From positions 2,595,689 to 2,659,688 of the forward strand of contig OZ251997.1 in assembly GCA_965247095.1 (NCBI GenBank): 64,000 nt of DNA, written 5' to 3'. Positions 3,062 through 29,462 of this stretch are shown here, piece after piece. The first letter of the stretch is position 1. Every line of letters begins with the position of its first letter. Position numbers and translations under genes: made by a program. This DNA is from Candidatus Multivorans sp. Its GTDB lineage: Bacteria; Acidobacteriota; Thermoanaerobaculia; Multivoradales; Multivoraceae. The notes beneath the pieces were generated by a model. It ran no database searches and was not told the DNA's origin. It saw only the letters and a program-made list of their open reading frames with translations.

Positions 3062-4702
3062 CTAGCTCGCAGCCAGGACCTTCGTCGCCCGTGAGCGGGT
3101 GGCGGCGAGCGCCTCCTCGTGGCTGAACAGACCGGCGTCCTCCACGAACTCCTCTTCGCTGGGCATGGCCGGATCGGGATTGAGGGACGGGAACAACGGC
3201 AGTACCCGGTCCCGGACAGTCCCGGGAGCATCCTTCGTGTTGAGCGCATGGAAGCGGAGGAGCTGTCGAGTGGTGGCGTCGCGGGCTCGGTCGTTACTGG
3301 CGCGCTGACACAGGGCCCGTAGCTCGCCGTCCCCTCTAGCCTGAGCGAGGAAGGCGATGAACTCCCTTCTCTCCGACTCGGACAGTCGGGCTCGCAGCGT
3401 GTCGTACTCGTCCCGTGCTCCGGACTGCTCGTACTGCTCTCGGTGGAAGATGAGCGCGTGGGGCAACTCCAGTAGCTGCAAGAACTCCTCCTGGTCCCTT
3501 CCATAGGCGCGCTCGAAGAAGCTCGGGTTGCCGCTGACTACGCCACGGGTGGCCTGCAGCATGATCTGGAAGGACCGCAGGTAGTAGCGGTTCCAGCGCC
3601 TTCCCACGTGTGAGCGGTCCTTCAGCGTCACCGGTTGGTAGCGCATCGGGAACGACCAGATGCGAACGCCGAGCTCTTCGTTCAGGCCGATGTTCAGGCG
3701 CATCCGCTCGTACAGGTCCTCCGGGGAGTCCATGAAGTTGTACAGCATGTAGTTCGACAGCGACGTGATGCCGTTGTCAGCCGCCATCCTCACCGCGGTG
3801 GTGTAGATCTTTCGTAGTCCGATGTGGTCGAAGGCGATCCGGAGGGGGCTGATGCAGATAGTGGCCATCTCGCGCAGGTACATTGGGGACTTGACGAGAA
3901 TCCTTGCGTCCACACCCTGGTTGAAGTCGACGCGGCGCTTCACCGGCCGCTGATCGTTCCGCCTCAGCTTGGCTCCCTGCTCGAAACCGAGGTCGCGAAT
4001 CTCGGCGATGACCTCCTTGTACCGGGCGGACGCAGTGATGTTGTTGTCCATGAGCACGAGGTCCTTCTTGGGCCCGTGTCTCGCGTCTACCCCGTTGACG
4101 AGGGCGGCGAGGGGCGGCATTTCGCGCTGCGCACCCTCAAGTTTCGGGACGCCGCAGAAGGAGCACTTCCGTATGCAGCCCCTTGAGGCATAGCCGAAGT
4201 AGGCGTCCCGCACCGGATAGGTGTAGTCGAGCTGCTCCAGGATGGAGTAGTCCGGCACCATCTCCTCGATTGGAGGGCCGTCAAGGTCGTCCGCACCGAA
4301 CTCGAAGTCCTCCGCGCGAAGCTGAAGGGCTCTTGCCGGCGGGCCGTCCAGCAGTCCCGCGATGAAGCGGACCCCCGCCCACCGTGGCTCCTTGAGGAAC
4401 TCCTCGTGCATGAGCGAGGCAGCGATTCCGCCGACGAAGACCCGTTCGGGCTGGTTACCAGCCGATTGAATGGCGAAGTCGATGGTTTCGGCGGTGCGCT
4501 TCCACTCGAAGCTGAAGAGCGTCGTGACGTAGACGCGGTCCCACGGCTCCAGGAAGAGGCCCTTTTCCGACACACCTTTCGCGAGCGTCACCGCGTCGCC
4601 ACGCTGCCGGTGGTAAGCCGCGATCTTCATGAGCCCGAGAGGCGGGTACTTGTTGCGGTAGCCCGGCTCCAGGAGAAGCACGCGCTTCGTCGGCTCCGTC
4701 AT
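3062..4702 (-). CDS. Radical SAM enzyme with N-terminal B12-binding-like domain (COG1032-type); substrate unknown
   Basis: 546-aa ORF. The N-terminus reads LLLEPGYRNKYPPLGLMKIAAYHRQRGD. There is a single CxxxCxxC motif, CIRKCSFC (C176/C180/C183, nt 4154-4177). No C-terminal Cys-rich SPASM/twitch region is present. Confidence 0.85.
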   Translation of the reverse strand: MTEPTKRVLLLEPGYRNKYPPLGLMKIAAYHRQRGDAVTLAKGVSEKGLFLEPWDRVYVTTLFSFEWKRTAETIDFAIQSAGNQPERVFVGGIAASLMHEEFLKEPRWAGVRFIAGLLDGPPARALQLRAEDFEFGADDLDGPPIEEMVPDYSILEQLDYTYPVRDAYFGYASRGCIRKCSFCGVPKLEGAQREMPPLAALVNGVDARHGPKKDLVLMDNNITASARYKEVIAEIRDLGFEQGAKLRRNDQRPVKRRVDFNQGVDARILVKSPMYLREMATICISPLRIAFDHIGLRKIYTTAVRMAADNGITSLSNYMLYNFMDSPEDLYERMRLNIGLNEELGVRIWSFPMRYQPVTLKDRSHVGRRWNRYYLRSFQIMLQATRGVVSGNPSFFERAYGRDQEEFLQLLELPHALIFHREQYEQSGARDEYDTLRARLSESERREFIAFLAQARGDGELRALCQRASNDRARDATTRQLLRFHALNTKDAPGTVRDRVLPLFPSLNPDPAMPSEEEFVEDAGLFSHEEALAATRSRATKVLAAS

Positions 4703-4899
4703 TTGGCCAGCATCCGGGTCGCGACCTTGCGACTCTTCCCGAACTCGAAGTCCACCATCTTCCTCGTTACCGGGTCATTCTGCAGTCGTCGGACAGCGTG
4801 ACCCTGCTCCTGCCACGCGAGGCTGATGCCGAAACCGCTCGAGACGCGCGTTAGCATATCAATGGTGCGCCGCTGGCCTCTCTCGCTCAAGCGCGTCAT
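4699..4899 (-). CDS. Possible 66-aa hypothetical protein translationally coupled to the radical SAM gene
   Basis: Internal ATG at 4899 of track ORF 4699..5091 gives MTRLSERGQRRTIDMLTRVSSGFGISLAWQEQGHAVRRLQNDPVTRKMVDFEFGKSRKVATRMLAK. Its TGA overlaps the radical SAM ATG (ATGA). No convincing RBS and no recognisable family. Confidence 0.3.
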   Translation of the reverse strand: MTRLSERGQRRTIDMLTRVSSGFGISLAWQEQGHAVRRLQNDPVTRKMVDFEFGKSRKVATRMLAK

Positions 4900-5032
4900 G
4901 GGCCGGTCTGTCTCGCTCCTCGCCGCGCCAGCGAAGACCGGGCCGCGAGGCCAACTCCAAGATGGTCGAGCTTGTGAGTATTGTCGCATCCAGCTTCGAC
5001 CTCTGCCTCTCGCTTGTGGGACACCAGTCCTA

Positions 5033-7363
5033 CTAAACCGCCTGAGATTCAGCGATATCTTCCGGAAAGTACTTCTCGACCTTCTCAACATACTGGTTGA
5101 CGAAGGCGACCTGGTCCGGGGTCAGGACACCGCGCTCAGGGTGCGCCACGATGTTGCGAATATCGTTGAGTTTCTTGATCCATTGCGTGTTTGCCTTCAT
5201 GTTGTCCCTGTTACTCGCGTCCAGCGATATCACTTCTTTGAATAGCTGCCAATTGCGGTGACATATGTCGATATAGTTTATCAGAAAGAGTTGAGATTCT
5301 TCATTGCCCTCACGTCGCCGCTCTTCCCACCGGGCCATGCATTGCTGGCGGATCGTGAGCGGGATTCCTTCCGTCCACCACTCTGTGCCCTGCGCGCCAT
5401 AGTGTCCCTTCAACGCCACGATGACGTAGTCAAAGAGCCTACGCTGTATCTTTCGCACCTTGGCGCTCGCTTCTTCTGTACCCGCTTCATCGCGGGAATC
5501 CAAGTACTGCTGCAGCCCTGGCGGCCTGAAGCTGGGGATCGTCTGGCCAATATGCGCCTCCAAACCGTAGGCCTGCCGCCGCACGGCTGTCAGGGAAGAG
5601 CCAATGCGCCTAAAGGACTGGATCTCTTGCGGTGATGCGTTCTTCAAGTAGCCGACCAAGACCTGAAGATACGGCCGGATTTCCCCGAAGGTCTCTTCTG
5701 CATTGAAGAGACTGAGGTCCACGCCGTCCGTGCGACGGACATGGTCAGCAATATCTTCAATAACGTGAAACAGAGCCCGAATGCCGTTGTTGGTACACAG
5801 ATATCCACCGGCTCGGTCGCCGAGCTCCCAGTGGCTCGCGAGCCCCGCCGCGAACATGTTGAGGCACTCCGAGAGCACCCATAGGGCCTTCCTGAGGTTC
5901 GCGTTGTAGTCGTCGGTTCTGGCCGTAGACAGGGGGCCCGGCACAACCGCACCTCTAGCGAAGGCTCCCAACAGCTTGGCAACTCTGAGCCCGTCCCGCA
6001 CCGAAGTCTGTGTCAGGCAGCGATAGTGGCTCTTCCTCTTTCCGGTGACGACCAGGCGGTCATGGAGCGGCGAGGTGCTGTCGCGGTTGAGGCGGGAGGC
6101 GATACGCGAGAGTAGGGCCTGAAACGCTTCTTCACGGTCGGAAGAGCCCCAATGAAGGTCAGCGTAAAGCTCGACCAAGAGTCCTGTGCTCACCTTGACC
6201 TGCTTGCTGTTGATATCGATGAAGAGGTTCATCTCCTCCTCGGAAGGTAGGTTTTCATAGGCCAGCACGGACAGGACGGTTGAATCCTTGTTGAATCCCT
6301 CTTGTGCTCGCGCATAGGCGTAGCCATAGAGCCTATGCTGGCCGTCGATGATCCAGGCCGAGGCGTAGTTCGGTGGCAGATAGAGTGTGCCCCAGGCCTC
6401 GTCACCGTAGGTCTGCTTCGCATCGAAACGCATCCGAGTTTTCTTGCGGTTCTTCAAGTTGACAACGATATTTGTCGGAAACCTGCCGCCGCCATTGATG
6501 TATTGTGCGATCTTCTTCAGCCGGCGCGGCTGGAGCATGCGCTGGTATGTTTCCAAATTGTCGATGTCCCGGCTTGCCTTGTGGCCAACATAGGCGATCT
6601 TCAAGAGCTCGCCAGGGCTGATGAGGAAAGTGTAGAACGTCTCGCCGCCCATCCTGCCGCGGGTCGCTACGACTTGTCGGACTAGGCCGGGGATCTTCTG
6701 GCCGCCGAACATGTGCCCCAAGAACTGGTAGCGGGCCGCGCGTTTGAGGTGCTTCACGAGCTTCGCATAGTAGTCGAGTTCCCCGTCCGTGACGACCGCA
6801 ATCTCCGCCTTCTCGCACTTCGCAAGGTCCGCATCGCTCCATGAGACATTTCGTGTGGCGATGATAAATCTGACTTTGAGCCCCGACTGCCGGCCGTAGG
6901 CCTTGCGGACCGACTTGAGCAAGTTGCCCCGGATTGCCGTGATGTTCTCGATCAGCGGCGCCATGCGCTTCGTGCCCGGGGTGCCACGCTGCGTGCACTC
7001 GACGATGATGACGGTTTCGTCGTCCTTGGCGAACACATCGATCTGACGTCCTGGCGGGCCATCTTCGACGGCGATCGTGAACTTGCGGCCTTTGTTCATT
7101 TCATCGAAGCCCATCTGAGCTAGGATGCACCAAACTTCGTCCTCAAGCTGCTCGTCAGCAGGCTTCTCCTGGGCCATTCGCGTTGACTTGGCGTTCTTTC
7201 TGACCGTCCGCCAACCGTTAGCTGCTTCCAGCTTGACCTTTTGAGCGACAAGCTCCTTCGACGAACCCGAGACAGTCTTATAGATATCCGGCTTTTTCCG
7301 GCTCCTGAGCTCGGATGTGATCTCATCGCCGGATAAGAGGGGGTCTAGGTATTGGTCGGTCAT
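5033..7363 (-). CDS. DGQHR-domain (DndB/DpdB ParB-like) protein with C-terminal HEPN-like R-x4-H motif
   Basis: 776-aa ORF. It contains WIIDGQHRLYGY (nt 6332-6346), FPTNIVVNL, and LFIDINSKQVKV. The C-terminus reads KKLNDIRNIVAHPERG (RNIVAH at nt 5141-5158). AGGGAG RBS lies upstream of the ATG at 7363. GC is visibly lower than in flanking DNA. Confidence 0.85.
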   Translation of the reverse strand: MTDQYLDPLLSGDEITSELRSRKKPDIYKTVSGSSKELVAQKVKLEAANGWRTVRKNAKSTRMAQEKPADEQLEDEVWCILAQMGFDEMNKGRKFTIAVEDGPPGRQIDVFAKDDETVIIVECTQRGTPGTKRMAPLIENITAIRGNLLKSVRKAYGRQSGLKVRFIIATRNVSWSDADLAKCEKAEIAVVTDGELDYYAKLVKHLKRAARYQFLGHMFGGQKIPGLVRQVVATRGRMGGETFYTFLISPGELLKIAYVGHKASRDIDNLETYQRMLQPRRLKKIAQYINGGGRFPTNIVVNLKNRKKTRMRFDAKQTYGDEAWGTLYLPPNYASAWIIDGQHRLYGYAYARAQEGFNKDSTVLSVLAYENLPSEEEMNLFIDINSKQVKVSTGLLVELYADLHWGSSDREEAFQALLSRIASRLNRDSTSPLHDRLVVTGKRKSHYRCLTQTSVRDGLRVAKLLGAFARGAVVPGPLSTARTDDYNANLRKALWVLSECLNMFAAGLASHWELGDRAGGYLCTNNGIRALFHVIEDIADHVRRTDGVDLSLFNAEETFGEIRPYLQVLVGYLKNASPQEIQSFRRIGSSLTAVRRQAYGLEAHIGQTIPSFRPPGLQQYLDSRDEAGTEEASAKVRKIQRRLFDYVIVALKGHYGAQGTEWWTEGIPLTIRQQCMARWEERRREGNEESQLFLINYIDICHRNWQLFKEVISLDASNRDNMKANTQWIKKLNDIRNIVAHPERGVLTPDQVAFVNQYVEKVEKYFPEDIAESQAV

Positions 7364-7577
7364 GCCGCTGCTCCCTGGTGAGTCGACTATCTCGCATCAT
7401 GTCGCTGGAGGCGACATTCGTGGACCTGTGCCTCAGGGTGTTCCGCGGACGCAGTACCGGAAGGCGAAGGAAGGGCGTTGAAGCTGGACGTGAGTTTCGG
7501 GAGGCTAGCACTTCGGTTGCTGGGAGTCAGATCGGCCCGGAACCTGTCAACGACATTGACACAGCGGGGTTCTGGAT

Positions 7578-8576
7578 TTACTGAGTCGTCTCTGCAGTCT
7601 CGTTGTCGGGCTTGTTGATCCAGACGGCCTGGGGCAGTGGCGTATGCATCGGTTGGCCGCCGACGAATCGTTCGGGGGAGCTTTCCCAGGCGGCGCTCAG
7701 CGTGCGTTGGCGCTGCTCGATCACGGCTTGCGCCCGGCCGTAGTGGACGGTCTCGGGGGTCAGCATGGCGATGCCGGCATGGCGGTGTTCCGTGTTGTAC
7801 CAGGGGAAGAAGGACCTGCAGTAGTCGGTCGCGGCGTCCTGGTTGGGGAAGCGGCTGGGGAAGTCGGGGTGGTACTTGAGGGTCTTGAACTGTGCTTCGG
7901 AGTAGGGGTTGTCGTCGCTGACCCGCGGGCGGCCCAGGGACCGGTTCACGCCGAGGCGGGCGAGCAGTTGGGCGGTACCCTGGCTGGTCATGGGGGCGCC
8001 TCGATCGGAATGCAGGGTCAGGACATGGGGCTTGACGCCGTGCTTGAGGCAGGTCTCCTCGATGAGCCTTTGGGCGAGCGCGGAGTTCTCGCGGTCGGCG
8101 ACCATCCAGCCGACCGCGTAGCGGCTTAGGAGGTCAAGCAGGACGTAGAGGTAGTAGTAGGTCCAGGTCTGCGGTCCGAGCAGCCTGGTGATGTCCCACG
8201 ACCAGACCTGGTTGGGCGCGACAGCGACCAGCTCCGGCTTGGCGTACGACGGATGGACGCGCTGGTTGCGGCGGTCCCTCACGGGGTGGTTCGCTTCGAG
8301 GATGCGGTACATCGTGCGCTCCGAGCACAGGTAGCGGCCCTCGTCGAGCAGGGTGGCCACCACTTCTCCCGGCGAACGATCGACGAAACGCGGCGACGCA
8401 AGCGTGGCCTCGACCCGTTTCCGCTCGATCTGGCTCAGTGCCCGGGCAGGCGTGGGGCGGGGCTGCCGTCGCCCGGGAGCGGGCCTCGCACGACGATAGA
8501 AGGTCGATCGCGATACGCCCAGCGCCCGGCACGCCGGCGCGACGCCGACCTGCCGGGCCAGGGACCTTGCCGCCAT
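7578..8576 (-). CDS. IS3-family transposase OrfB (rve DDE integrase core)
   Basis: Contains NQVWSWDITRL, HSDRGAPMTS and DNPYSEAQFKTLKY. The ATG at 8576 overlaps the orfA stop (TGATG). The frame stays open upstream, consistent with an OrfAB fusion. Confidence 0.85.
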   Translation of the reverse strand: MAARSLARQVGVAPACRALGVSRSTFYRRARPAPGRRQPRPTPARALSQIERKRVEATLASPRFVDRSPGEVVATLLDEGRYLCSERTMYRILEANHPVRDRRNQRVHPSYAKPELVAVAPNQVWSWDITRLLGPQTWTYYYLYVLLDLLSRYAVGWMVADRENSALAQRLIEETCLKHGVKPHVLTLHSDRGAPMTSQGTAQLLARLGVNRSLGRPRVSDDNPYSEAQFKTLKYHPDFPSRFPNQDAATDYCRSFFPWYNTEHRHAGIAMLTPETVHYGRAQAVIEQRQRTLSAAWESSPERFVGGQPMHTPLPQAVWINKPDNETAETTQ

Positions 8577-9061
8577 CAGCAGTCCTTCCCGTCTTCGAGG
8601 CTGAATCCCAGCAGCCCTGCAACTTTTCCCTGGACGTCCAGGATCGTGTGCGCGGCGGCGACTTCCCTCTCGAGACGCTTGACCTTCGCTTCCAGCCGCT
8701 TCACCTTCGGCATCAGAGGGTTGGCCTCGTTCGGCTTGCGGCCCCGCTTCTTCGGCCTCAGACCGGAAAGCGCGCCCTCGCGCCGCGCCTTGCGCCAGTT
8801 GGCCAGATGGGAGCTGTACAGACCCTCTCGCCGCAGCAGCCGACCCACCTCGCCGCGGTGGGTGCATCGGTCCGCTTCCTCCAGAATCCGCAGCCGGTAC
8901 TCCGCCGTGAACTGCCGCCTGGTCGGTCTCGCCAGCACTTCCGGGTCGGGAACCGCCCCGGCGGGCGCCGCGCCGGCCGCGGGGGCCTCGTCGCTACGCT
9001 CCTCAACCCCCGCGGCCGGGAGCTCCGAGCCGCCGCCAAACCTCTGCTCTCGTCTTGACAT
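8576..9061 (-). CDS. IS3-family transposase OrfA (HTH)
   Basis: Sequence starts MSRREQRF and contains RRQFTAEYRLRILEEADRC and LLRREGLYSSHLANWRKAR plus a leucine-zipper-like tail. I preferred the internal ATG at 9061 of track ORF 8576..9091. Confidence 0.8.
   Translation of the reverse strand: MSRREQRFGGGSELPAAGVEERSDEAPAAGAAPAGAVPDPEVLARPTRRQFTAEYRLRILEEADRCTHRGEVGRLLRREGLYSSHLANWRKARREGALSGLRPKKRGRKPNEANPLMPKVKRLEAKVKRLEREVAAAHTILDVQGKVAGLLGFSLEDGKDC
8623..8630 (-). other. Candidate -1 programmed frameshift site (G GGA AAA G) for an OrfAB fusion
   Basis: Minus strand reads CAG GGA AAA GTT in the orfA frame. A -1 slip continues as GKSCRAAGIQ..., which is the orfB frame seen in track ORF 7578..8867. 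Confidence 0.35.
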
Positions 9062-23683: not shown

Positions 23684-23959
23684 TCACGGACCCGTTTCCC
23701 GGCGCCATCCGAATCTGCGGGAGGCGCGGATCTCCCGGAGTTCGGCGTTTGTTTCCTCTCTGGGCCGCGTGGGCGGTGCCTCGCGGAGGCGGGTGATCAC
23801 TTTCAACATGCGAAGATGCTCGACCTCGCTCAGCCGGTCGGCCCGGGCTGCGAAGTCGGCTACCGCCTCGCGGACGACCTGACTCTGCGGTTTGCCGAGT
23901 CGCTCTGCCGTGCGGCGGATGCGGCGGACCGTCGCATCATCGAGGGAATACGTGACCAT
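23684..23959 (-). CDS. Ribbon-helix-helix (CopG/VapB-like) antitoxin-like protein, apparently orphan
   Basis: The last 91 aa of track ORF 23684..24703 read MVTYSLDDATVRRIRRTAERLGKPQSQVVREAVADFAAR.... No toxin ORF is adjacent. Confidence 0.6.
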   Translation of the reverse strand: MVTYSLDDATVRRIRRTAERLGKPQSQVVREAVADFAARADRLSEVEHLRMLKVITRLREAPPTRPREETNAELREIRASRRFGWRRETGP

Positions 23960-24003
23960 GACCACAACGCGGCAAATCCTGCCATAGCTGCCGGTGGATT
24001 CAC

Positions 24004-25132: not shown

Positions 25133-25931
25133 CTACATGCGGTCCGCGAGCTGCAGCGCCGGATCGAACAGGCGATTCGGCGCCTCGTCCTCGCCCAGGA
25201 GGAACCGGATCTCGTCGTCGTAGCCGGTCATCTCCCAGCGGCTGAGCGAGATCGGGATGATGCTGCCGGCCAGGAACTCGTCGATGAAGTCTCTGAGCAC
25301 GAAGTCGTCGCCGAGTTGCATCGCGCGTTCGCGGAACAGTTTCATGAAGTGGGCCTTGCCGACCACGACGCCGGTGTGGAAGCCGGGGAAGCGCAGGTTG
25401 TTCGTAGATGCGCGCCTCCCGAGGGGCGGCCCAGATCGCGATCGTGGCGAGATCCGAAGCGCCTTCGGTCAGGTTGGACCTGGCCTGTTCGTAGATCTTC
25501 GGCACCGCTCGCAGGGTCGTCCGGTACTCCTCCAACTCTCCGTCGTCGAACGGCGGCTCGAGTTCGAAGAGGGTCCGGAAGCCCGCCATCGCCGGTCCGG
25601 CGCCGCCCTGAGACATCAGGTAGAACGCGGGATCCCGGGACCACGGCCGGGTCACCCGATGGTGGAAGTCGAGCCCGTTCATCTCGGCGCGGACCAGGTG
25701 ATGGTCGATCTGCTCGGAGACGGGCCAGTCGTCGATTTCGATGGCGGCCAGCCGCGCCTTGTAGTCCTCGAGCCCTTGGCGTTGCCGCTCCATCGCCTCG
25801 GCGGTGTAGTCGGACACGCCGCCCACGATCTCGGGCTCCTGGAAGACGCGGAAGTCCTCGAAGAGCTGCAGGAGACATGCGGGCTCCTTCTCAGCGAAGT
25901 GGCGGGTCTTCTTGGCGTCCGAGAGGGCTAC
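25133..25931 (-). pseudogene. DUF885-like gene remnant (no start, internal deletion plus frameshift)
   Basis: Frame A (open from 25931) reads SDAKKTRHFAEKE...QIDHHLVRAEMNGLDFHHRV...YEQARSNLTEG. Near 25400 it switches to frame B, FHTGVVVGKAHFMKLFRERAMQLGDDFVLRDFIDEFLAGSIIPISLSR (track ORF 25133..25366). The central catalytic part is absent. Confidence 0.55.
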
Positions 25932-26166
25932 TCACTGGCAAGCTCCGCGATTGACAGGAGTTATCCATGAGGCAATAGTCAGTGTGTGCTCGGCCAGGAG
26001 ACCGTGCCCGGGCGTCCCACGTTGGGCATCGCCGACCTCCACCGCCGATGGTACTCCTCGGGCGGAGAGAGGGTGATACCGTGCCCGGCCCCCGGAGGGG
26101 CACTGACCTGCCGGTCACACTCCAGAGGCGATGGACGTCCGGTGCCCCGGACCAGGGTTCGCGGCA

Positions 26167-26934
26167 ATGACTAACTCCTCCCGGCCAAATCGCATTCGCA
26201 CACTGGCCAACGCGCCGATTCGCGAGGCGCTGATAGACCTCCGCTGCGAGTTGCCGGAAGGTCAGGACGCCGAGCTGTTGGCCAGATTCGATGCCGCTCA
26301 TCGGGGGATCGAGAGCGAGTTCCCCGAGAAGGGGAAGAACTACGCGGCGAGTGTTTCTGCCGAGTTGAAAGAAGGTACGGATCCAGCAGTTGCCGCGACC
26401 GCGGCGTTGCGTGGATACCACTTCAGGAACTCTCAAGGAGACAAGATCGTCCAGTTTCGCCTTGATGGCTTCACTTTCAACAAGCTGCGCCCCTATACGA
26501 AATGGGCGCAACTCCGGGCGGAGGCTGAGACTCTGTGGACGAAGTACAGGTCGTTGTTGTCGGAAGTTCGGGTTACGAGGGTTGGCGTCCGTTACATCAA
26601 CGAGATCCAGGTTGCCCCCGGGGTCGGTTTCGAGACCATCTTCGTAGAGCCCCTGAGACAGCCGCTGGGCTTCGGTCAGGGTCGAATTCGGCAGTCTTTG
26701 GAGCGACTTCAAATCTCGAGTCACGACGCCTTCGAGAGGACGATAGTGACCCGCCTAGCTAGAGAAGAGAAAGCGGGGTTCACTGTGATCCTCGATATCG
26801 ACGCCTTTGCCGTGGCGCCAGATGGGGCCTTCGAGGACTGCGAGGTGTGGGCGCGTATTGACGAACTTCGTAGCCGGAAGAACGAGATCTTCTTCAGCAG
26901 TTTGACTGCCAACGGAATCGAGAGGTACGCATGA
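26167..26934 (+). CDS. Uncharacterised protein, resembles the TIGR04255 family
   Basis: Contains APIREALIDLR, RVTRVGVRYINEI and a TVILDIDAF pattern. The family assignment is from memory and not searched. GC is lower than in the surroundings. Confidence 0.65.
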   Translation: MTNSSRPNRIRTLANAPIREALIDLRCELPEGQDAELLARFDAAHRGIESEFPEKGKNYAASVSAELKEGTDPAVAATAALRGYHFRNSQGDKIVQFRLDGFTFNKLRPYTKWAQLRAEAETLWTKYRSLLSEVRVTRVGVRYINEIQVAPGVGFETIFVEPLRQPLGFGQGRIRQSLERLQISSHDAFERTIVTRLAREEKAGFTVILDIDAFAVAPDGAFEDCEVWARIDELRSRKNEIFFSSLTANGIERYA

Positions 26935-27431
26935 GTCTAGTTGCCGTAGAAGCTCAGGATTGGGTGGGACAACTCGGGAGGCGGCGCTCGACGGCTGTTG
27001 GGCCGGAGGCGTTTCGAATCGATAGGGAGGAAGAGACTTCGGAATCAGCAGTCTCCGCATGGCAGTTGTCGAGACAGGATGCCAGGAGGAACCTGTGGGA
27101 GATCTTCGAAGAGGCGTCCGTTCCCGGCTGGGACGGTGACGATGCCAGGCCGCTCTCGCGCCGCGCGAAGGACGCCGTAGTCGATGCTCTCTTCACCCTT
27201 GCGCCCCATGTACCGATTCCCGAGATAGTGCCTGAGCCCGACGGTGGCGTGGCCATGCAGTGGTCGAGTGGCAGTACGCACTCTCTGATTGTGAGCTTCG
27301 GGCCGGATGGCGACCTCTATTTCGCCGTTCAGATTCCGGGTCGGCGAGAATCGGGCCGACGCCCTTTCGACGCCCAACTTCCCTCGGATCTGCTGGGGCT
27401 CGCGAAGGAGGCCGCGGCTGACGATCCGTGA
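26931..27431 (+). CDS. Hypothetical protein
   Basis: 166-aa ORF. Its ATG overlaps the upstream stop (ATGA) and is preceded by GAGAGG. Composition is protein-like. Confidence 0.65.
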   Translation: MSLVAVEAQDWVGQLGRRRSTAVGPEAFRIDREEETSESAVSAWQLSRQDARRNLWEIFEEASVPGWDGDDARPLSRRAKDAVVDALFTLAPHVPIPEIVPEPDGGVAMQWSSGSTHSLIVSFGPDGDLYFAVQIPGRRESGRRPFDAQLPSDLLGLAKEAAADDP

Positions 27432-27810
27432 TGGGGAGTCCGTTGCCCGGTTCCTCTACACGAAGAGTTACTTCTCCGTCGCCAAGAGGACGGTGAAGCA
27501 CGCTGCCTTTATGCCCCCGAGTGATCTCCGAACGTCGGTCTACCGAATTGACGGGCTGGATGAGACAGGGGTGCGCCAGCTAGCTTCCGAAACATCTCGG
27601 AAGACTTCGTTCAAGGGACACGGGGTTTTCCTGGCGGCTGATGTGCGATCAGTGTCTCAACTGGATGTCGTTCCCGAAACGAGTCAACATCCGCTTCACG
27701 CCGACATTGTGGGTTGGCCGACAGAACGAGAGAAGCGGATTGAACTCGCCCGCCTGCTCGCGGTCAAGGCTGAATTTGTACCGTCAGCGCCGGGACCCAG
27801 TTCGGCTTGA
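27307..27810 (+). CDS. Hypothetical protein, start unresolved
   Basis: The protein-like part begins around 27418 (LTIRDGESVARFLYTKSYF...HADIVGWPTEREKRIELARLLA). GAAGGAGG lies at 27404-27411, but the only nearby in-frame starts are CTG 27418 or the overlapping ATG 27307. Confidence 0.5.
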   Translation: MATSISPFRFRVGENRADALSTPNFPRICWGSRRRPRLTIRDGESVARFLYTKSYFSVAKRTVKHAAFMPPSDLRTSVYRIDGLDETGVRQLASETSRKTSFKGHGVFLAADVRSVSQLDVVPETSQHPLHADIVGWPTEREKRIELARLLAVKAEFVPSAPGPSSA

Positions 27811-27869
27811 CGGTGAGGTCGTGTACACGGCCGAATTGACTACCCGGCCGCGGGAGCACTGCTGCCGAT

Positions 27870-29462
27870 CTATGGAATGTTGACCAGGGTGTAGTAGGCC
27901 TCCGGGTGGAGAAGCGGCTCACCGCCCTTGCTCCGGACTCCGTCGAGATGCAGCTCGTGGACGTAGCCGGCACGCAGCGGCTCGACGGTCAGGCGGACGC
28001 TCCTCGCGTCGGCGGCCACCCGAGCGGATCGGATGGCGACCCGCAGCTTGTCGTCCTCGGGCCCGCCGTAGCTCGAGCTGAGGCGATAGGTGTAGCTCTG
28101 CATGCGGTAGGTCGCGGGGTTTCCTGCACTCTCCGGATCCACCGGCCGGGTGAACGTGAGTTCGAAGCCGTCGGGACGGGCCCGCATCTCGTGGACCTCG
28201 AACGGCAGGGCGCCGGTCCAGACGATCCGCTGGAGACCGTGGGGCTCGGGGCCGACGCCGCCCCAGCCGCGGTCCGACATGCCGGCGAAGAGCGATCCGT
28301 CGTCAGCGAAGGCGAGGCGGATCACGCCGCTGTCGAGGCCGCGCCGGAAGTTGAACGCGGCGCCCTGCCAGTGGCCGCCGATCTTCTCCAGGAACACCCG
28401 CATGACCATCGCGTGATGCTGGTCGCCGACGAAGAGCTGGCCGGCGAAGGGCCCGAACTTGCCGCCGGTCGTGTCCCACTTGAGACCGGAGGGGGACTGC
28501 CCCATCTTCACGTAGGGGAACCACACCGACGGCATGCGGAAGTTCGGAATCAGCTCGTGCATGTCCTTCATGAAGGTTCCGCCCTGCGGCTGGCCTTCGG
28601 GCGGCGGCTCGACCTTGGACTCGGGTAGGTGGGTGGAAGCCATGCCGTGGGGATGACCATGAAAGTCGCCCACATCGATCAGCGAGAGCTTCGAGGCGTT
28701 GTTCCACTCGCCCTGGTTGTCCGTGTAGAAGACCTCGCCCCAGGGGCTGACCTCGACGCCGGCGGGAGAGCGCAGGCCGGCGGCGACGAACTCGGCGTCG
28801 CCGCTCGCGGGATCGACTCGGACCGCCCAGCCCCGCCAGTCCGCGAACCCGTAGGGCTGGGCGCCGAAGGGGATGTTCAGCGTCACCCAGAGCTTGCCGT
28901 CCGGCGTCAGGCGCGGTCCGAAGACGTACTCGTGGTAGTCGCCGCTGGTTTCCCACGCGTCCGTGACGGTCTCGAAGACATCGGCCCGATCGTCTCCGTC
29001 CGTGTCCTTGAGCCGGGTCAGCTCGCCCCGCTGTGCCGTGTAGATCCAGCCGTCGAGCTCGAGCAGGCCGAGCGGCTGCCCGAGGCCGAAGGCGTACTGC
29101 TTGAACGCCGGTTGCGGCGGGTCGCTGAACGCGTTCTCGACGATGAAGATCTCGCCCCGCCGGGTTCCCGCCATGATGCGGCCGTCCGAGAGCTGCAACA
29201 GCCCGCCGACCTCCATCGACATCCCCTCCTCGAGGGGCATCGTGAGCAGCCGGTAGGACAGCTCCTCCGCGGCGGCCTGCGCGCCGATGGCGTCCTGCTG
29301 GCGGGCGAGGATCTGCTTCTCGGTCTCCTCGCGCAGGCCATCGTCCAGGGGTTCCTGGGCGAGAAGCGGCAGGGGCAAGCAGATCAGCAGGGCGACCAGC
29401 GCTGTGGCGGCGGCGCGGCCGGGTTGCAAGGTGTTTGCGCTCACGAGGGCCATGGGGATCAC
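27870..29462 (-). CDS. Secreted beta-propeller protein (glucose/sorbosone-dehydrogenase-like, 'membrane-bound dehydrogenase domain' type)
   Basis: 530-aa ORF with a signal peptide. It contains DGDDRADVFE, SPWGEVFYTDNQGEW and FHGHPHG. It overlaps the upstream cytochrome gene stop. Confidence 0.7.
   Translation of the reverse strand: MIPMALVSANTLQPGRAAATALVALLICLPLPLLAQEPLDDGLREETEKQILARQQDAIGAQAAAEELSYRLLTMPLEEGMSMEVGGLLQLSDGRIMAGTRRGEIFIVENAFSDPPQPAFKQYAFGLGQPLGLLELDGWIYTAQRGELTRLKDTDGDDRADVFETVTDAWETSGDYHEYVFGPRLTPDGKLWVTLNIPFGAQPYGFADWRGWAVRVDPASGDAEFVAAGLRSPAGVEVSPWGEVFYTDNQGEWNNASKLSLIDVGDFHGHPHGMASTHLPESKVEPPPEGQPQGGTFMKDMHELIPNFRMPSVWFPYVKMGQSPSGLKWDTTGGKFGPFAGQLFVGDQHHAMVMRVFLEKIGGHWQGAAFNFRRGLDSGVIRLAFADDGSLFAGMSDRGWGGVGPEPHGLQRIVWTGALPFEVHEMRARPDGFELTFTRPVDPESAGNPATYRMQSYTYRLSSSYGGPEDDKLRVAIRSARVAADARSVRLTVEPLRAGYVHELHLDGVRSKGGEPLLHPEAYYTLVNIP

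Follow-up and report, generated by a model that had tools for sequence, protein, structure and literature searches.

A conserved three-gene cassette in Candidatus Multivorans, led by a TIGR04255 protein and ending in a predicted ADP-ribosyltransferase-fold protein, as a candidate toxin–antitoxin-like module

ADP-ribosyltransferase (ART) toxins have repeatedly exposed new targets, namely DNA bases, mRNA, tRNA and Prs, and the ART catalytic triad, located on strands 1, 2 and 5, is either H-Y-E or R-S-E. In DarTG the antitoxin DarG is a macrodomain, while the antitoxins of RES–Xre pairs (ParST, MbcTA) are Xre/DUF2384 proteins. Other systems contain a third component, which is an RHH repressor (ω) in ω-ε-ζ and a SecB chaperone in TAC (HigBA–SecB). 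A DNA-binding autoregulatory domain is common in type II antitoxins but not obligatory. A precedent in which an ART toxin belongs to a system of three parts is CmdTAC, a toxin–antitoxin–chaperone defence system in which CmdT is an mRNA ADP-ribosyltransferase (PMC11618068).

Here we analysed a 64,000-nucleotide stretch of the Candidatus Multivorans genome (hereafter the window), whose open reading frame list contains three closely packed genes, ORF1, ORF2 and ORF3, all on the + strand (Table 1). The conservation of the same trio across phyla, together with the ART-toxin-like predicted fold of ORF3, indicates that the cassette is in all likelihood a toxin–antitoxin (TA) or defence module of three parts that has not been described before. 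We lean towards a more specific reading, in which the cassette would be a self-contained, horizontally mobile, three-component TA-like conflict module organized as one operon, where ORF3 would be the toxin, ORF2 its antitoxin and ORF1 a shared accessory protein. The operon architecture and the purifying selection acting on all three genes (dN/dS 0.18 for ORF1, 0.17 for ORF2 and 0.20 for ORF3, the last over 36 pairs) are consistent with such a module.

Table 1. Features of the cassette and of its upstream region (positions in the window)
Feature	Position	Strand	Basis
Promoter-like element TTGACA-17 nt-AATAGT, 5' of the cassette	25951..25979	+	putative, sigma-70-like
Conserved leader of ~190 nt, from the promoter-like site to the ORF1 start	25980..26166	+	alignment of clade loci
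ORF1, 255 aa, TIGR04255 family, putative accessory component	26167..26934	+	NCBIfam; conserved start; dN/dS
ORF2, 166 aa, acidic, putative antitoxin/immunity partner	26931..27431	+	family, overlap, dN/dS
Shine-Dalgarno (SD) GAAGGAGG of ORF3, within the ORF2 3' end	27404..27411	+	conserved in clade
ORF3, ~130 aa, putative toxin with predicted ADP-ribosyltransferase fold	27418..27810	+	probable start; family, predicted fold
Low-GC, low-GC3 block spanning all three genes	26167..27810	.	GC/GC3 computation; read as foreign origin

The cassette resembles CmdTAC in that three small co-transcribed genes would encode an effector of ART fold, a neutraliser dedicated to it and a third protein tied to this neutraliser. 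The two differ in gene order (T–A–C in CmdTAC, accessory–antitoxin–toxin here), in the third protein (a SecB-like chaperone versus a TIGR04255 protein of 255 aa that does not match SecB), in the catalytic residues (Tyr41 of CmdT versus R/S/H in ORF3) and in the antitoxin, which consists of two helices and a disordered tail in CmdTAC, whereas ORF2 is a folded helix+β protein (CmdTAC features from PMC11618068). DarTG and the RES–Xre pairs also have toxins of the ART superfamily but comprise two genes instead of three, and Pfam detected no DUF4433, RES, macro or HTH domain in 39 ORF3-family and 21 ORF2-family members. When components of CmdTAC and TAC were looked for in ORF1, ORF2 and ORF3, no SecB, other Pfam or meaningful PADLOC match was obtained, with PADLOC v2 presumably including the CmdTAC (PD-T4-9) models.

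The first inspection of this DNA had described three co-oriented genes of low GC, overlapping at an ATGA, next to a decayed gene, and all of these points hold. The ATGA overlap of ORF1 and ORF2 is real and covers 4 nt (26931-26934). The GC content of the cassette is 59.7% versus 67.5% for the whole window, a value as low being reached in only 3% of 1,644-nt segments, mostly from one other island (~3.7-8 kb). GC3 is 0.62-0.70 in the cassette genes versus 0.87-0.91 in four adjacent genes, and in nine related genomes the cassette GC is likewise depressed (0.59-0.61 versus 0.68-0.70). To judge from this foreign composition (low GC and GC3), the cassette is horizontally acquired. The decayed 5' neighbour is a DUF885 pseudogene, of which residues 35-216 and 472-560 of a 561-aa relative remain in two frames; the 3' side carries a DUF7133 gene in convergent orientation and a large cytochrome c gene. 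Upstream of the cassette, the promoter-like element is the sole sigma-70-like site in the 25800-28000 region (10/12 matches; shuffling expectation 0.3), and TTGACA with a TATA-rich -10 is kept in 10 of 11 relatives. In the upstream alignment (A9, 25900-26175, which includes the promoter-like site), mean column identity is 72% over 12 clade loci. The leader matched no Rfam family, and its covariation is weak; because the predicted hairpins have only one compensatory pair, an RNA structure is not established.

In order to evaluate the joint conservation of the three families, a check proposed with the original prediction, reference genomes were scanned with an ORF3 profile. It identified 24 loci, spread over Acidobacteriota, delta- and betaproteobacteria, Nitrospira, Dehalococcoidales, Verrucomicrobia, Phycisphaerae and Pseudomonadales. 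Among the distant loci with upstream DNA, ORF2 lies directly 5' of ORF3 in 20/20 and ORF1 is present in 18/20. A reverse search, in which 80 metagenome loci were collected through the ORF1 subfamily (tight alignment), found ORF2 in 65/67 and ORF3 in 58/59. These data demonstrate that the trio is kept as a unit across phyla, so that the objection of three families not conserved together fails. The ORF1/ORF2 spacing is -4 nt in 60 of 76 cassettes, the start of ORF3 mostly lies no more than ~10 nt from the stop of ORF2, and in three independent assemblies ORF1 and ORF2 are fused in frame (414 aa) and an ORF3 homologue follows. Type II TA systems generically consist of small genes that are adjacent, co-oriented and coupled in translation and that recur together in different genomes, and this is what is observed here. 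The flanks of the loci contain 158 Pfam families, each in at most 2 loci, i.e. the neighbourhoods are unrelated, and L007 has a differing neighbour gene; like the GC and GC3 deficit, this speaks for mobility of the cassette.

ORF1 is a member of the TIGR04255 family, as had been suspected from its sequence: it scores 105 bits against the NCBIfam model (cut-off 30), over model positions 2-248 of 252, and the ORF1 proteins of distant cassettes score 115-131 bits. The upstream ATG at 26131, first taken as its start, was rejected and is probably wrong, since it is not conserved (locus L001 reads GGT at this position and is 1 nt shorter through a deletion) while the ATG at 26167 is conserved among relatives and public gene calls on the identical sequence give 255 aa. 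No Pfam match was found for ORF1 or for 19 members of its family, and no sequence relative in the PDB; a PDB match to 9hnh was discarded as a designed solenoid. There was no signal of internal duplication (hhalign probability 0.2%), and the searched literature contained nothing on TIGR04255, CHP04255 or IPR026349.

ORF2 and ORF3 had been called unrecognisable, and neither has a Pfam, NCBIfam or PDB sequence match, yet both are true families. All close homologues of ORF2 are exactly 166 aa long and the family motif is GWDG(Y/D)(G/D)A.P ... PEPDG....W. ORF2 also lacks a PHROGs relative, its fold search gave no match, and Pfam was blank for 21 ORF2-family members. A DNA-binding domain (HTH/RHH/AbrB) was absent by Pfam from these 21 proteins and from 19 ORF1-family members. 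The PADLOC model PDC-M32A matches a stretch of ~50 residues in 14 of the 21 ORF2-family members (best E-value 1.3e-6). This match is limited to the GWDG…PEPDG region of ORF2 and to profile positions ~271-322 of 375, and no PDC-M32 partner was matched by PADLOC in ORF1 or ORF3. The partial match and the unmatched other components point to a shared domain and not to the same system as PDC-M32. In this genome, acidic ORF2 (pI 4.6) contrasts in charge with basic ORF3 (pI 9.4), a basicity that is not family-wide, the ORF3 family median being pI 7.0.

The ORF3 family comprises 2,459 clusters at 50% identity (E<=1e-3). No match was found in Pfam (39 family members), NCBIfam, PHROGs or PADLOC, and sequence searches of the PDB, run with profiles as well as with single sequences, returned chance matches only. 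Conserved residues are E7, R11, S40, R43, H94-A95 and W100-P101. The predicted fold of ORF3 is split β-sheet ART-like, with structural Z scores of 4.4-4.8 for DarT and 4.7 for a RES toxin; the alignment with Tpt1/KptA covers 89 residues of ORF3 and the ART lobe only. R11 (strand 8-13), S40 (strand 39-43) and H94, which opens strand 94-98, fall in predicted strands 1, 2 and 5. They are invariant or nearly so and, on a mapping by secondary structure alone, would occupy the ART triad positions. The Arg and Ser fit the R-S-E pattern, with the canonical catalytic Glu replaced by His. A new ART family with this replacement could, like earlier ones, expose new targets.

We propose that ORF3 acts as the toxin, probably binding NAD+ via three conserved residues, an Arg in strand 1, a Ser in strand 2 and a His in strand 5, and that it would modify or degrade a cellular target. 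The acidic ORF2, encoded directly upstream, would be its cognate neutraliser. ORF1, which is joined to ORF2 in the natural fusion, may physically partner it as a stabiliser, a sensor or a chaperone-like component; its family, TIGR04255, is reused with other downstream gene sets. The module as a whole may serve phage defence or simple addiction. The accessory module first proposed, "TA-like or defence-like" and openly speculative, is backed by the predicted ART-like fold of ORF3, the operon architecture, the foreign composition and another TIGR04255-led cassette, which ends in a zeta toxin. In this way three orphan families gain one testable hypothesis, founded on a conserved trio, a predicted toxin-type NAD+-transferase fold and the reuse of TIGR04255, a name given by NCBI to many bacterial proteins, while ORF2 and ORF3 previously belonged to no family.

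Cassettes with other compositions bear on this reuse. In a Vibrio plasmid, a TIGR04255 gene is followed by two genes, one for a 179-aa product and one for a zeta toxin verified through Pfam, and in other plasmids TIGR04255 leads different overlapping sets of one or two genes. Two loci with the same ORF1 subfamily (L103, L114) have a different downstream pair. Conversely, L012 and L024 retain ORF2 and ORF3 behind a different first gene, which has no homology to TIGR04255 (probability 0.9%). Third genes from other TIGR04255 cassettes gave nothing in PDB searches. The cassette shares its three-component logic with ω-ε-ζ and TAC (HigBA–SecB), and the TIGR04255-led Vibrio cassette ends in a zeta-family toxin, although TIGR04255 proteins are by sequence neither RHH repressors nor SecB. 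A wider reading, which we put forward as tentative and rather doubtful, is that a large class of three-component conflict systems, modular in build, shares TIGR04255 as its overlooked first gene and combines it with exchangeable antitoxin–toxin pairs. Under the same reservation, the accessory protein (sensor, chaperone or stabiliser) would be physically coupled to the antitoxin, and the swappable pairs might include the R-S-H ART-fold family (>2,400 clusters), zeta kinases and a Cys/His-motif protein. If true, this would provide a function for a widely annotated orphan NCBI family as well as a new ART toxin family.

The alternative that best survives, and which we nevertheless consider unlikely, is that the trio forms an enzyme system with no part in conflict. 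ORF3 would then use NAD+ as a transferase of the Tpt1/KptA type, with RNA or a metabolite as substrate, while ORF1 and ORF2 would be subunits conferring specificity or regulation, and the system would serve RNA repair, modification or regulation and not growth arrest. This view agrees with the absence of defence-gene enrichment in the flanks (~3/58 loci adjoin type IIG restriction-modification genes), with the lack of ORF3 copies in phage, viral-contig and plasmid collections, and with the stable vertical inheritance of the cassette at a single chromosomal site in the Multivorans clade, under purifying selection on the three genes. The missing enrichment, the lack of such copies and the vertical inheritance also weigh against the TA-like reading, as do the replaced catalytic Glu of ORF3, a pI of ORF3 that is not basic family-wide, and an ORF2 in which neither a DNA-binding domain nor a recognisable fold was found. 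Tpt1/KptA proteins, however, are two-lobed PTS_2-RNA proteins whose catalytic tetrad is Arg-His-Arg-Arg. ORF3 is a single-domain protein lacking the second Tpt1 domain (130 aa versus ~180) and any Pfam PTS_2-RNA or NCBIfam match, and its invariant E, R, S, R and H are other residues, differently arranged. Moreover, ORF3 belongs to a mobile three-gene cassette with foreign GC and a patchy, sporadic spread over phyla, whose downstream pair is swappable and whose lead gene family is also paired with a zeta toxin.

Less probable still is that ORF3 is here a decaying pseudogene with a lost start codon, leaving a remnant cassette in which only ORF1 and ORF2 are functional. Its homologous start indeed lacks an in-frame ATG, GTG or TTG, it escaped gene calling in all but one of seven related loci and it is frameshifted in L002 and L007; decay is also seen nearby, in the DUF885 neighbour and in a PIN toxin lost while its RHH antitoxin is kept. 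Against decay, the dN/dS of ORF3 is level with those of ORF1 and ORF2, the frame is open from CTG to stop in 10/12 clade loci, and all residues invariant in the family are present in the window ORF3. In addition, an SD-N6-CTG arrangement is invariant: [A/C]AAGGAGG is found in 12/12 clade loci, 6 nt 5' of a CTG (27418) that is itself invariant in all 12. That ORF3 is made solely as an ORF2-ORF3 fusion, by programmed +1 frameshifting close to the stop of ORF2 with the internal SD as stimulator (as in prfB), would suit the +1 frame of ORF3, the strong SD-like sequence inside ORF2 5' of its stop and the missing canonical start, but is very improbable given that the SD ends 17 nt from the stop (~3 nt in prfB), that the pre-stop codon is variable and non-slippery (CCG, CCA, CAA, CCC), that ORF3 in other lineages has its own ATG, GTG or TTG, often after a spacer past the ORF2 stop, and that full-length homologues are stand-alone proteins of ~135 aa.

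For ORF3 as a separate, putative toxin gene of the module, the strong ribosome-binding site without a canonical in-frame start that had been pointed out is real, no in-frame ATG, GTG or TTG lying downstream of GAAGGAGG. ORF3 most likely initiates at CTG 27418, 6 nt past this SD, as suggested by clade conservation and by its N-terminus "ESVARFLY", which lines up with full-length homologues. The further proposal that ATG 27431 would be brought in frame by a 1-nt indel in the G-run at 27431-27438 was rejected. This out-of-frame ATG results from a C->G change found in this genome only: at its position the 11 relatives, one of them 96% identical, all show TGATCGGG, TGACCGGG or TGACAGGG, and the ORF3 frame is conserved (dN/dS 0.20) in relatives without it. 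With an invariant SD-N6-CTG, no sequence error is needed to account for initiation. ATG 27307, which would create a 125-nt overlap, was also rejected: in-frame upstream starts vary between relatives, and ORF2 third positions are as variable inside the overlap (32/37) as in the non-overlapping part (102/125), i.e. there is no dual-coding constraint. Through this tight coupling, the ATGA overlap followed by SD-N6-CTG, expression may follow the order ORF1 ≈ ORF2 > ORF3, which would keep the putative toxin sub-stoichiometric. Gene callers missed ORF3 in six of the seven related loci. Its conserved SD-CTG start provides an example of a putative toxin gene overlooked by standard gene callers.

The three plus-strand genes ORF1, ORF2 and ORF3, which the original prediction had treated as one cassette, are indeed conserved together. 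An ORF3-profile scan covering one genome per species found 24 loci, spread over seven or more phyla or classes, and two metagenome contigs contributed two further loci. In all 20 distant loci with upstream DNA, an ORF2 homologue was found immediately upstream of ORF3, preceded in 18 of them by a homologue of TIGR04255, the NCBIfam family of ORF1; in two loci (L012 and L024) an unrelated ORF of ~210-225 aa replaces the TIGR04255 gene. The reverse scan with the ORF1 subfamily gave 80 metagenome loci, with ORF2 in 65/67 and ORF3 in 58/59 of those with enough DNA. Flanking genes are unrelated between cassette loci (158 Pfam families, each in at most two loci).

ORF1 starts at ATG 26167 and encodes 255 aa, which matches the protein length in public annotation of the identical sequence. 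The ATG at 26131, previously taken as its start, was rejected because it is not conserved (in the related locus L001 a deletion affects the site, which reads GGT). As had been suspected, ORF1 is a true TIGR04255 member (105 bits, cut-off 30); the family lacks a Pfam model, sequence searches of the PDB gave no relative, and the searchable literature did not mention it. The predicted ATGA overlap joining ORF1 to ORF2 is present and recurs in 60 of 76 cassettes elsewhere. Moreover, three independent assemblies carry an in-frame ORF1-ORF2 fusion of 414 aa followed by an ORF3 homologue (L121 3001-4638, GCA_001771985.1, Betaproteobacteria MAG; identical fusion in L120 and L122), which argues that the two proteins act together physically. 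On plasmids too, TIGR04255 leads overlapping two- or three-gene sets, with differing partners: a 179-aa protein and a Pfam-verified zeta toxin (Vibrio), 182-aa and 171-aa proteins (Crinalium), an HTH protein and a 273-aa protein (Acinetobacter), a "transcriptional regulator" (Rhodococcus), 70-aa and 192-aa proteins adjoining an Abi gene (Methylocystis) and a 147-aa protein adjoining VapBC (Thermus). Judging from these sets, TIGR04255 seems to be a common module coupled to interchangeable downstream genes.

Neither ORF2 nor ORF3 matched Pfam, NCBIfam or PHROGs. A stretch of ~50 residues is common to the ORF2 family and the PADLOC candidate PDC-M32A (14/21 members, best E-value 1.3e-6). In the predicted ORF2 structure (pLDDT 78), a five-stranded sheet comes after a helical hairpin; a structure search with it gave no meaningful match. 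The ORF3 family is large: clustered at 50% identity, it has 2,459 representatives at E<=1e-3 (1,173 at E<=1e-10), mostly of 130-140 aa. Its AlphaFold2 model is confident (pLDDT 90.4, pTM 0.83) and retrieved, below the top matches, DarT, RES toxin, Tne2, pertussis-like toxins, Scabin and Rhs ADP-ribosyltransferase (ART) toxins; some of the ART-fold matches are non-enzymes. The family-invariant polar residues R11 (strand 1), S40 (strand 2) and H94 (start of strand 5) appear to occupy the ART triad positions, as mapped by secondary structure only, and in the model would form an R-S-E-like arrangement with the catalytic Glu replaced by His. E7 and R43 are likewise invariant.

No in-frame ATG, GTG or TTG was found near the homologous N-terminus of ORF3, and gene callers leave it uncalled in 6/7 related loci or cut it to 96-106 aa elsewhere. 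Its N-terminus (ESVARFLY…KHAAFMPP) aligns with full-length homologues of 135-147 aa, and its dN/dS of 0.20 among nine intact clade members, level with ORF1 (0.18) and ORF2 (0.17), shows purifying selection; a frameshift disrupts ORF3 in L002 and L007. Judged from these comparisons, ORF3 is very probably a real coding sequence despite the lack of a canonical start. The 1-nt G-run indel proposed to bring ATG 27431 into frame is refuted, since this ATG stems from a C->G substitution private to this genome (RDRES to RDGES); all 11 relatives lack it. A long hidden ORF2/ORF3 overlap was also ruled out, because ORF2 third-codon positions upstream of CTG 27418 vary as freely (32/37) as elsewhere (102/125). 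The motif [A/C]AAGGAGG, 6 nt and then this CTG are invariant in 12/12 loci, and we infer that ORF3 initiates there; coupling to the end of ORF2 translation, 11 nt farther on, may help. A weak start would fit a putative toxin gene. In a second lineage (L017, betaproteobacterial MAG, 5938-6000), an ORF3 homologue without canonical start has AAGAGG directly before an in-frame CTG.

Features of the cassette region and of the second low-GC block (window positions)
Feature	Position	Strand	Remarks
Three-gene cassette	26167-27810	+	Between DUF885 pseudogene and convergent DUF7133/cytochrome c gene pair
Promoter-like site TTGACA-17-AATAGT	25951-25979		Conserved among related loci
Leader, ~190 nt, with promoter-like site	25951-26166		Promoter-like site to ORF1; unusually conserved
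DUF885 pseudogene	25136-25874	-	Residues 35-216 and 472-560 of intact 561-aa relative left, in two different frames
Orphan RHH (CopG-like) antitoxin gene	23687-23965	-	90% identical to L001 counterpart
546-aa ORF	3062-4702	-	CxxxCxxC radical-SAM-like motif
776-aa ORF	5033-7363	-	IIDGQHRLYGY (DGQHR/DndB-like) motif; C-terminal IRNIVAHPE HEPN-like motif
IS3-type transposase ORF	7578-8867		Adjoins 546-aa and 776-aa ORFs

The low GC noted originally is real: 59.7% in the cassette versus 67.5% in the window, with GC3 of 0.62-0.70 versus 0.87-0.91 in four flanking genes. Among windows of this size just 3% reach so low a value, nearly all of them in one other island (~3.7-8 kb), and nine related genomes show a matching dip. 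This deviating composition indicates that the cassette was acquired from outside. The nearest genome match is a Candidatus Multivorans MAG (Acidobacteriota, Thermoanaerobaculia; 96% identity over ORF3). The same trio occurs in eleven related loci (L001-L011), at the same chromosomal site beside DUF885 and cytochrome genes in six of the seven inspected for context (L001-L007); in L007 the neighbour is an SNF2 helicase. The upstream "decayed gene" was identified as DUF885, intact in L001, L003 and L006. The PIN toxin partner of the L001 RHH antitoxin has no match anywhere in the window, so here the toxin was lost and the antitoxin kept. In the Multivorans clade, the cassette region appears to be variable and to accumulate toxin-antitoxin (TA) genes. 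Small TA pairs (RHH/PIN, PhdYeFM/PIN_3, HTH_3) abound around the cassette in L001-L006, and an IS110 transposase lies nearby in L005. Hairpins are predicted in the leader, one spanning the ORF1 start codon, with covariation support almost nil; an Rfam search of it gave no match.

The cassette is built from three families without assigned function, and we lean slightly towards reading it as a TA-like module whose effector belongs to the ART superfamily, a known kind of system. The genes would form a single operon driven from the putative promoter; ORF1 and ORF2, translationally coupled, would form a complex, and ORF2 (computed pI 4.6) would neutralise ORF3 (pI 9.4). ORF3 would be a toxin of ART fold that uses NAD+; initiation at CTG would lower its rate of synthesis, and loss or sequestration of ORF1/ORF2 would release it. 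The analysis shows the gene order, coupling, co-occurrence, fusion, fold, selection and foreign origin, and from these the toxicity, neutralisation, NAD+ chemistry, target, role of ORF1 and CTG start are inferred. In logic the cassette comes closest to CmdTAC (PMC11618068), whose three components include an ART toxin. The cassette differs from it in gene order, antitoxin architecture and toxin family, with TIGR04255 rather than SecB as accessory protein, and in this comparison no sequence model matched. At the sequence level it did not fall into DarTG, RES-Xre or Tpt1 either, and we therefore class it as a TA-like variant with an ART effector. A defence role is possible but is not supported by genomic context, since type IIG restriction-modification genes adjoin only ~3/58 cassette loci and no ORF3 copies were found in phage and plasmid collections.

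Two metagenome loci, L103 (1382-2004) and L114 (3720-5200), are the exceptions lacking ORF2. In them the same ORF1 subfamily is followed by a different pair, a helical protein of ~145 aa and a second protein of ~158 aa, without PDB relative by sequence search; the latter's motif (YNC.AW..G....WW.P … THAA) may denote a Cys/His hydrolase. Finally, the second low-GC block of the window (3062-8867, GC 0.57-0.60) looks like another acquired island, possibly defence-related.
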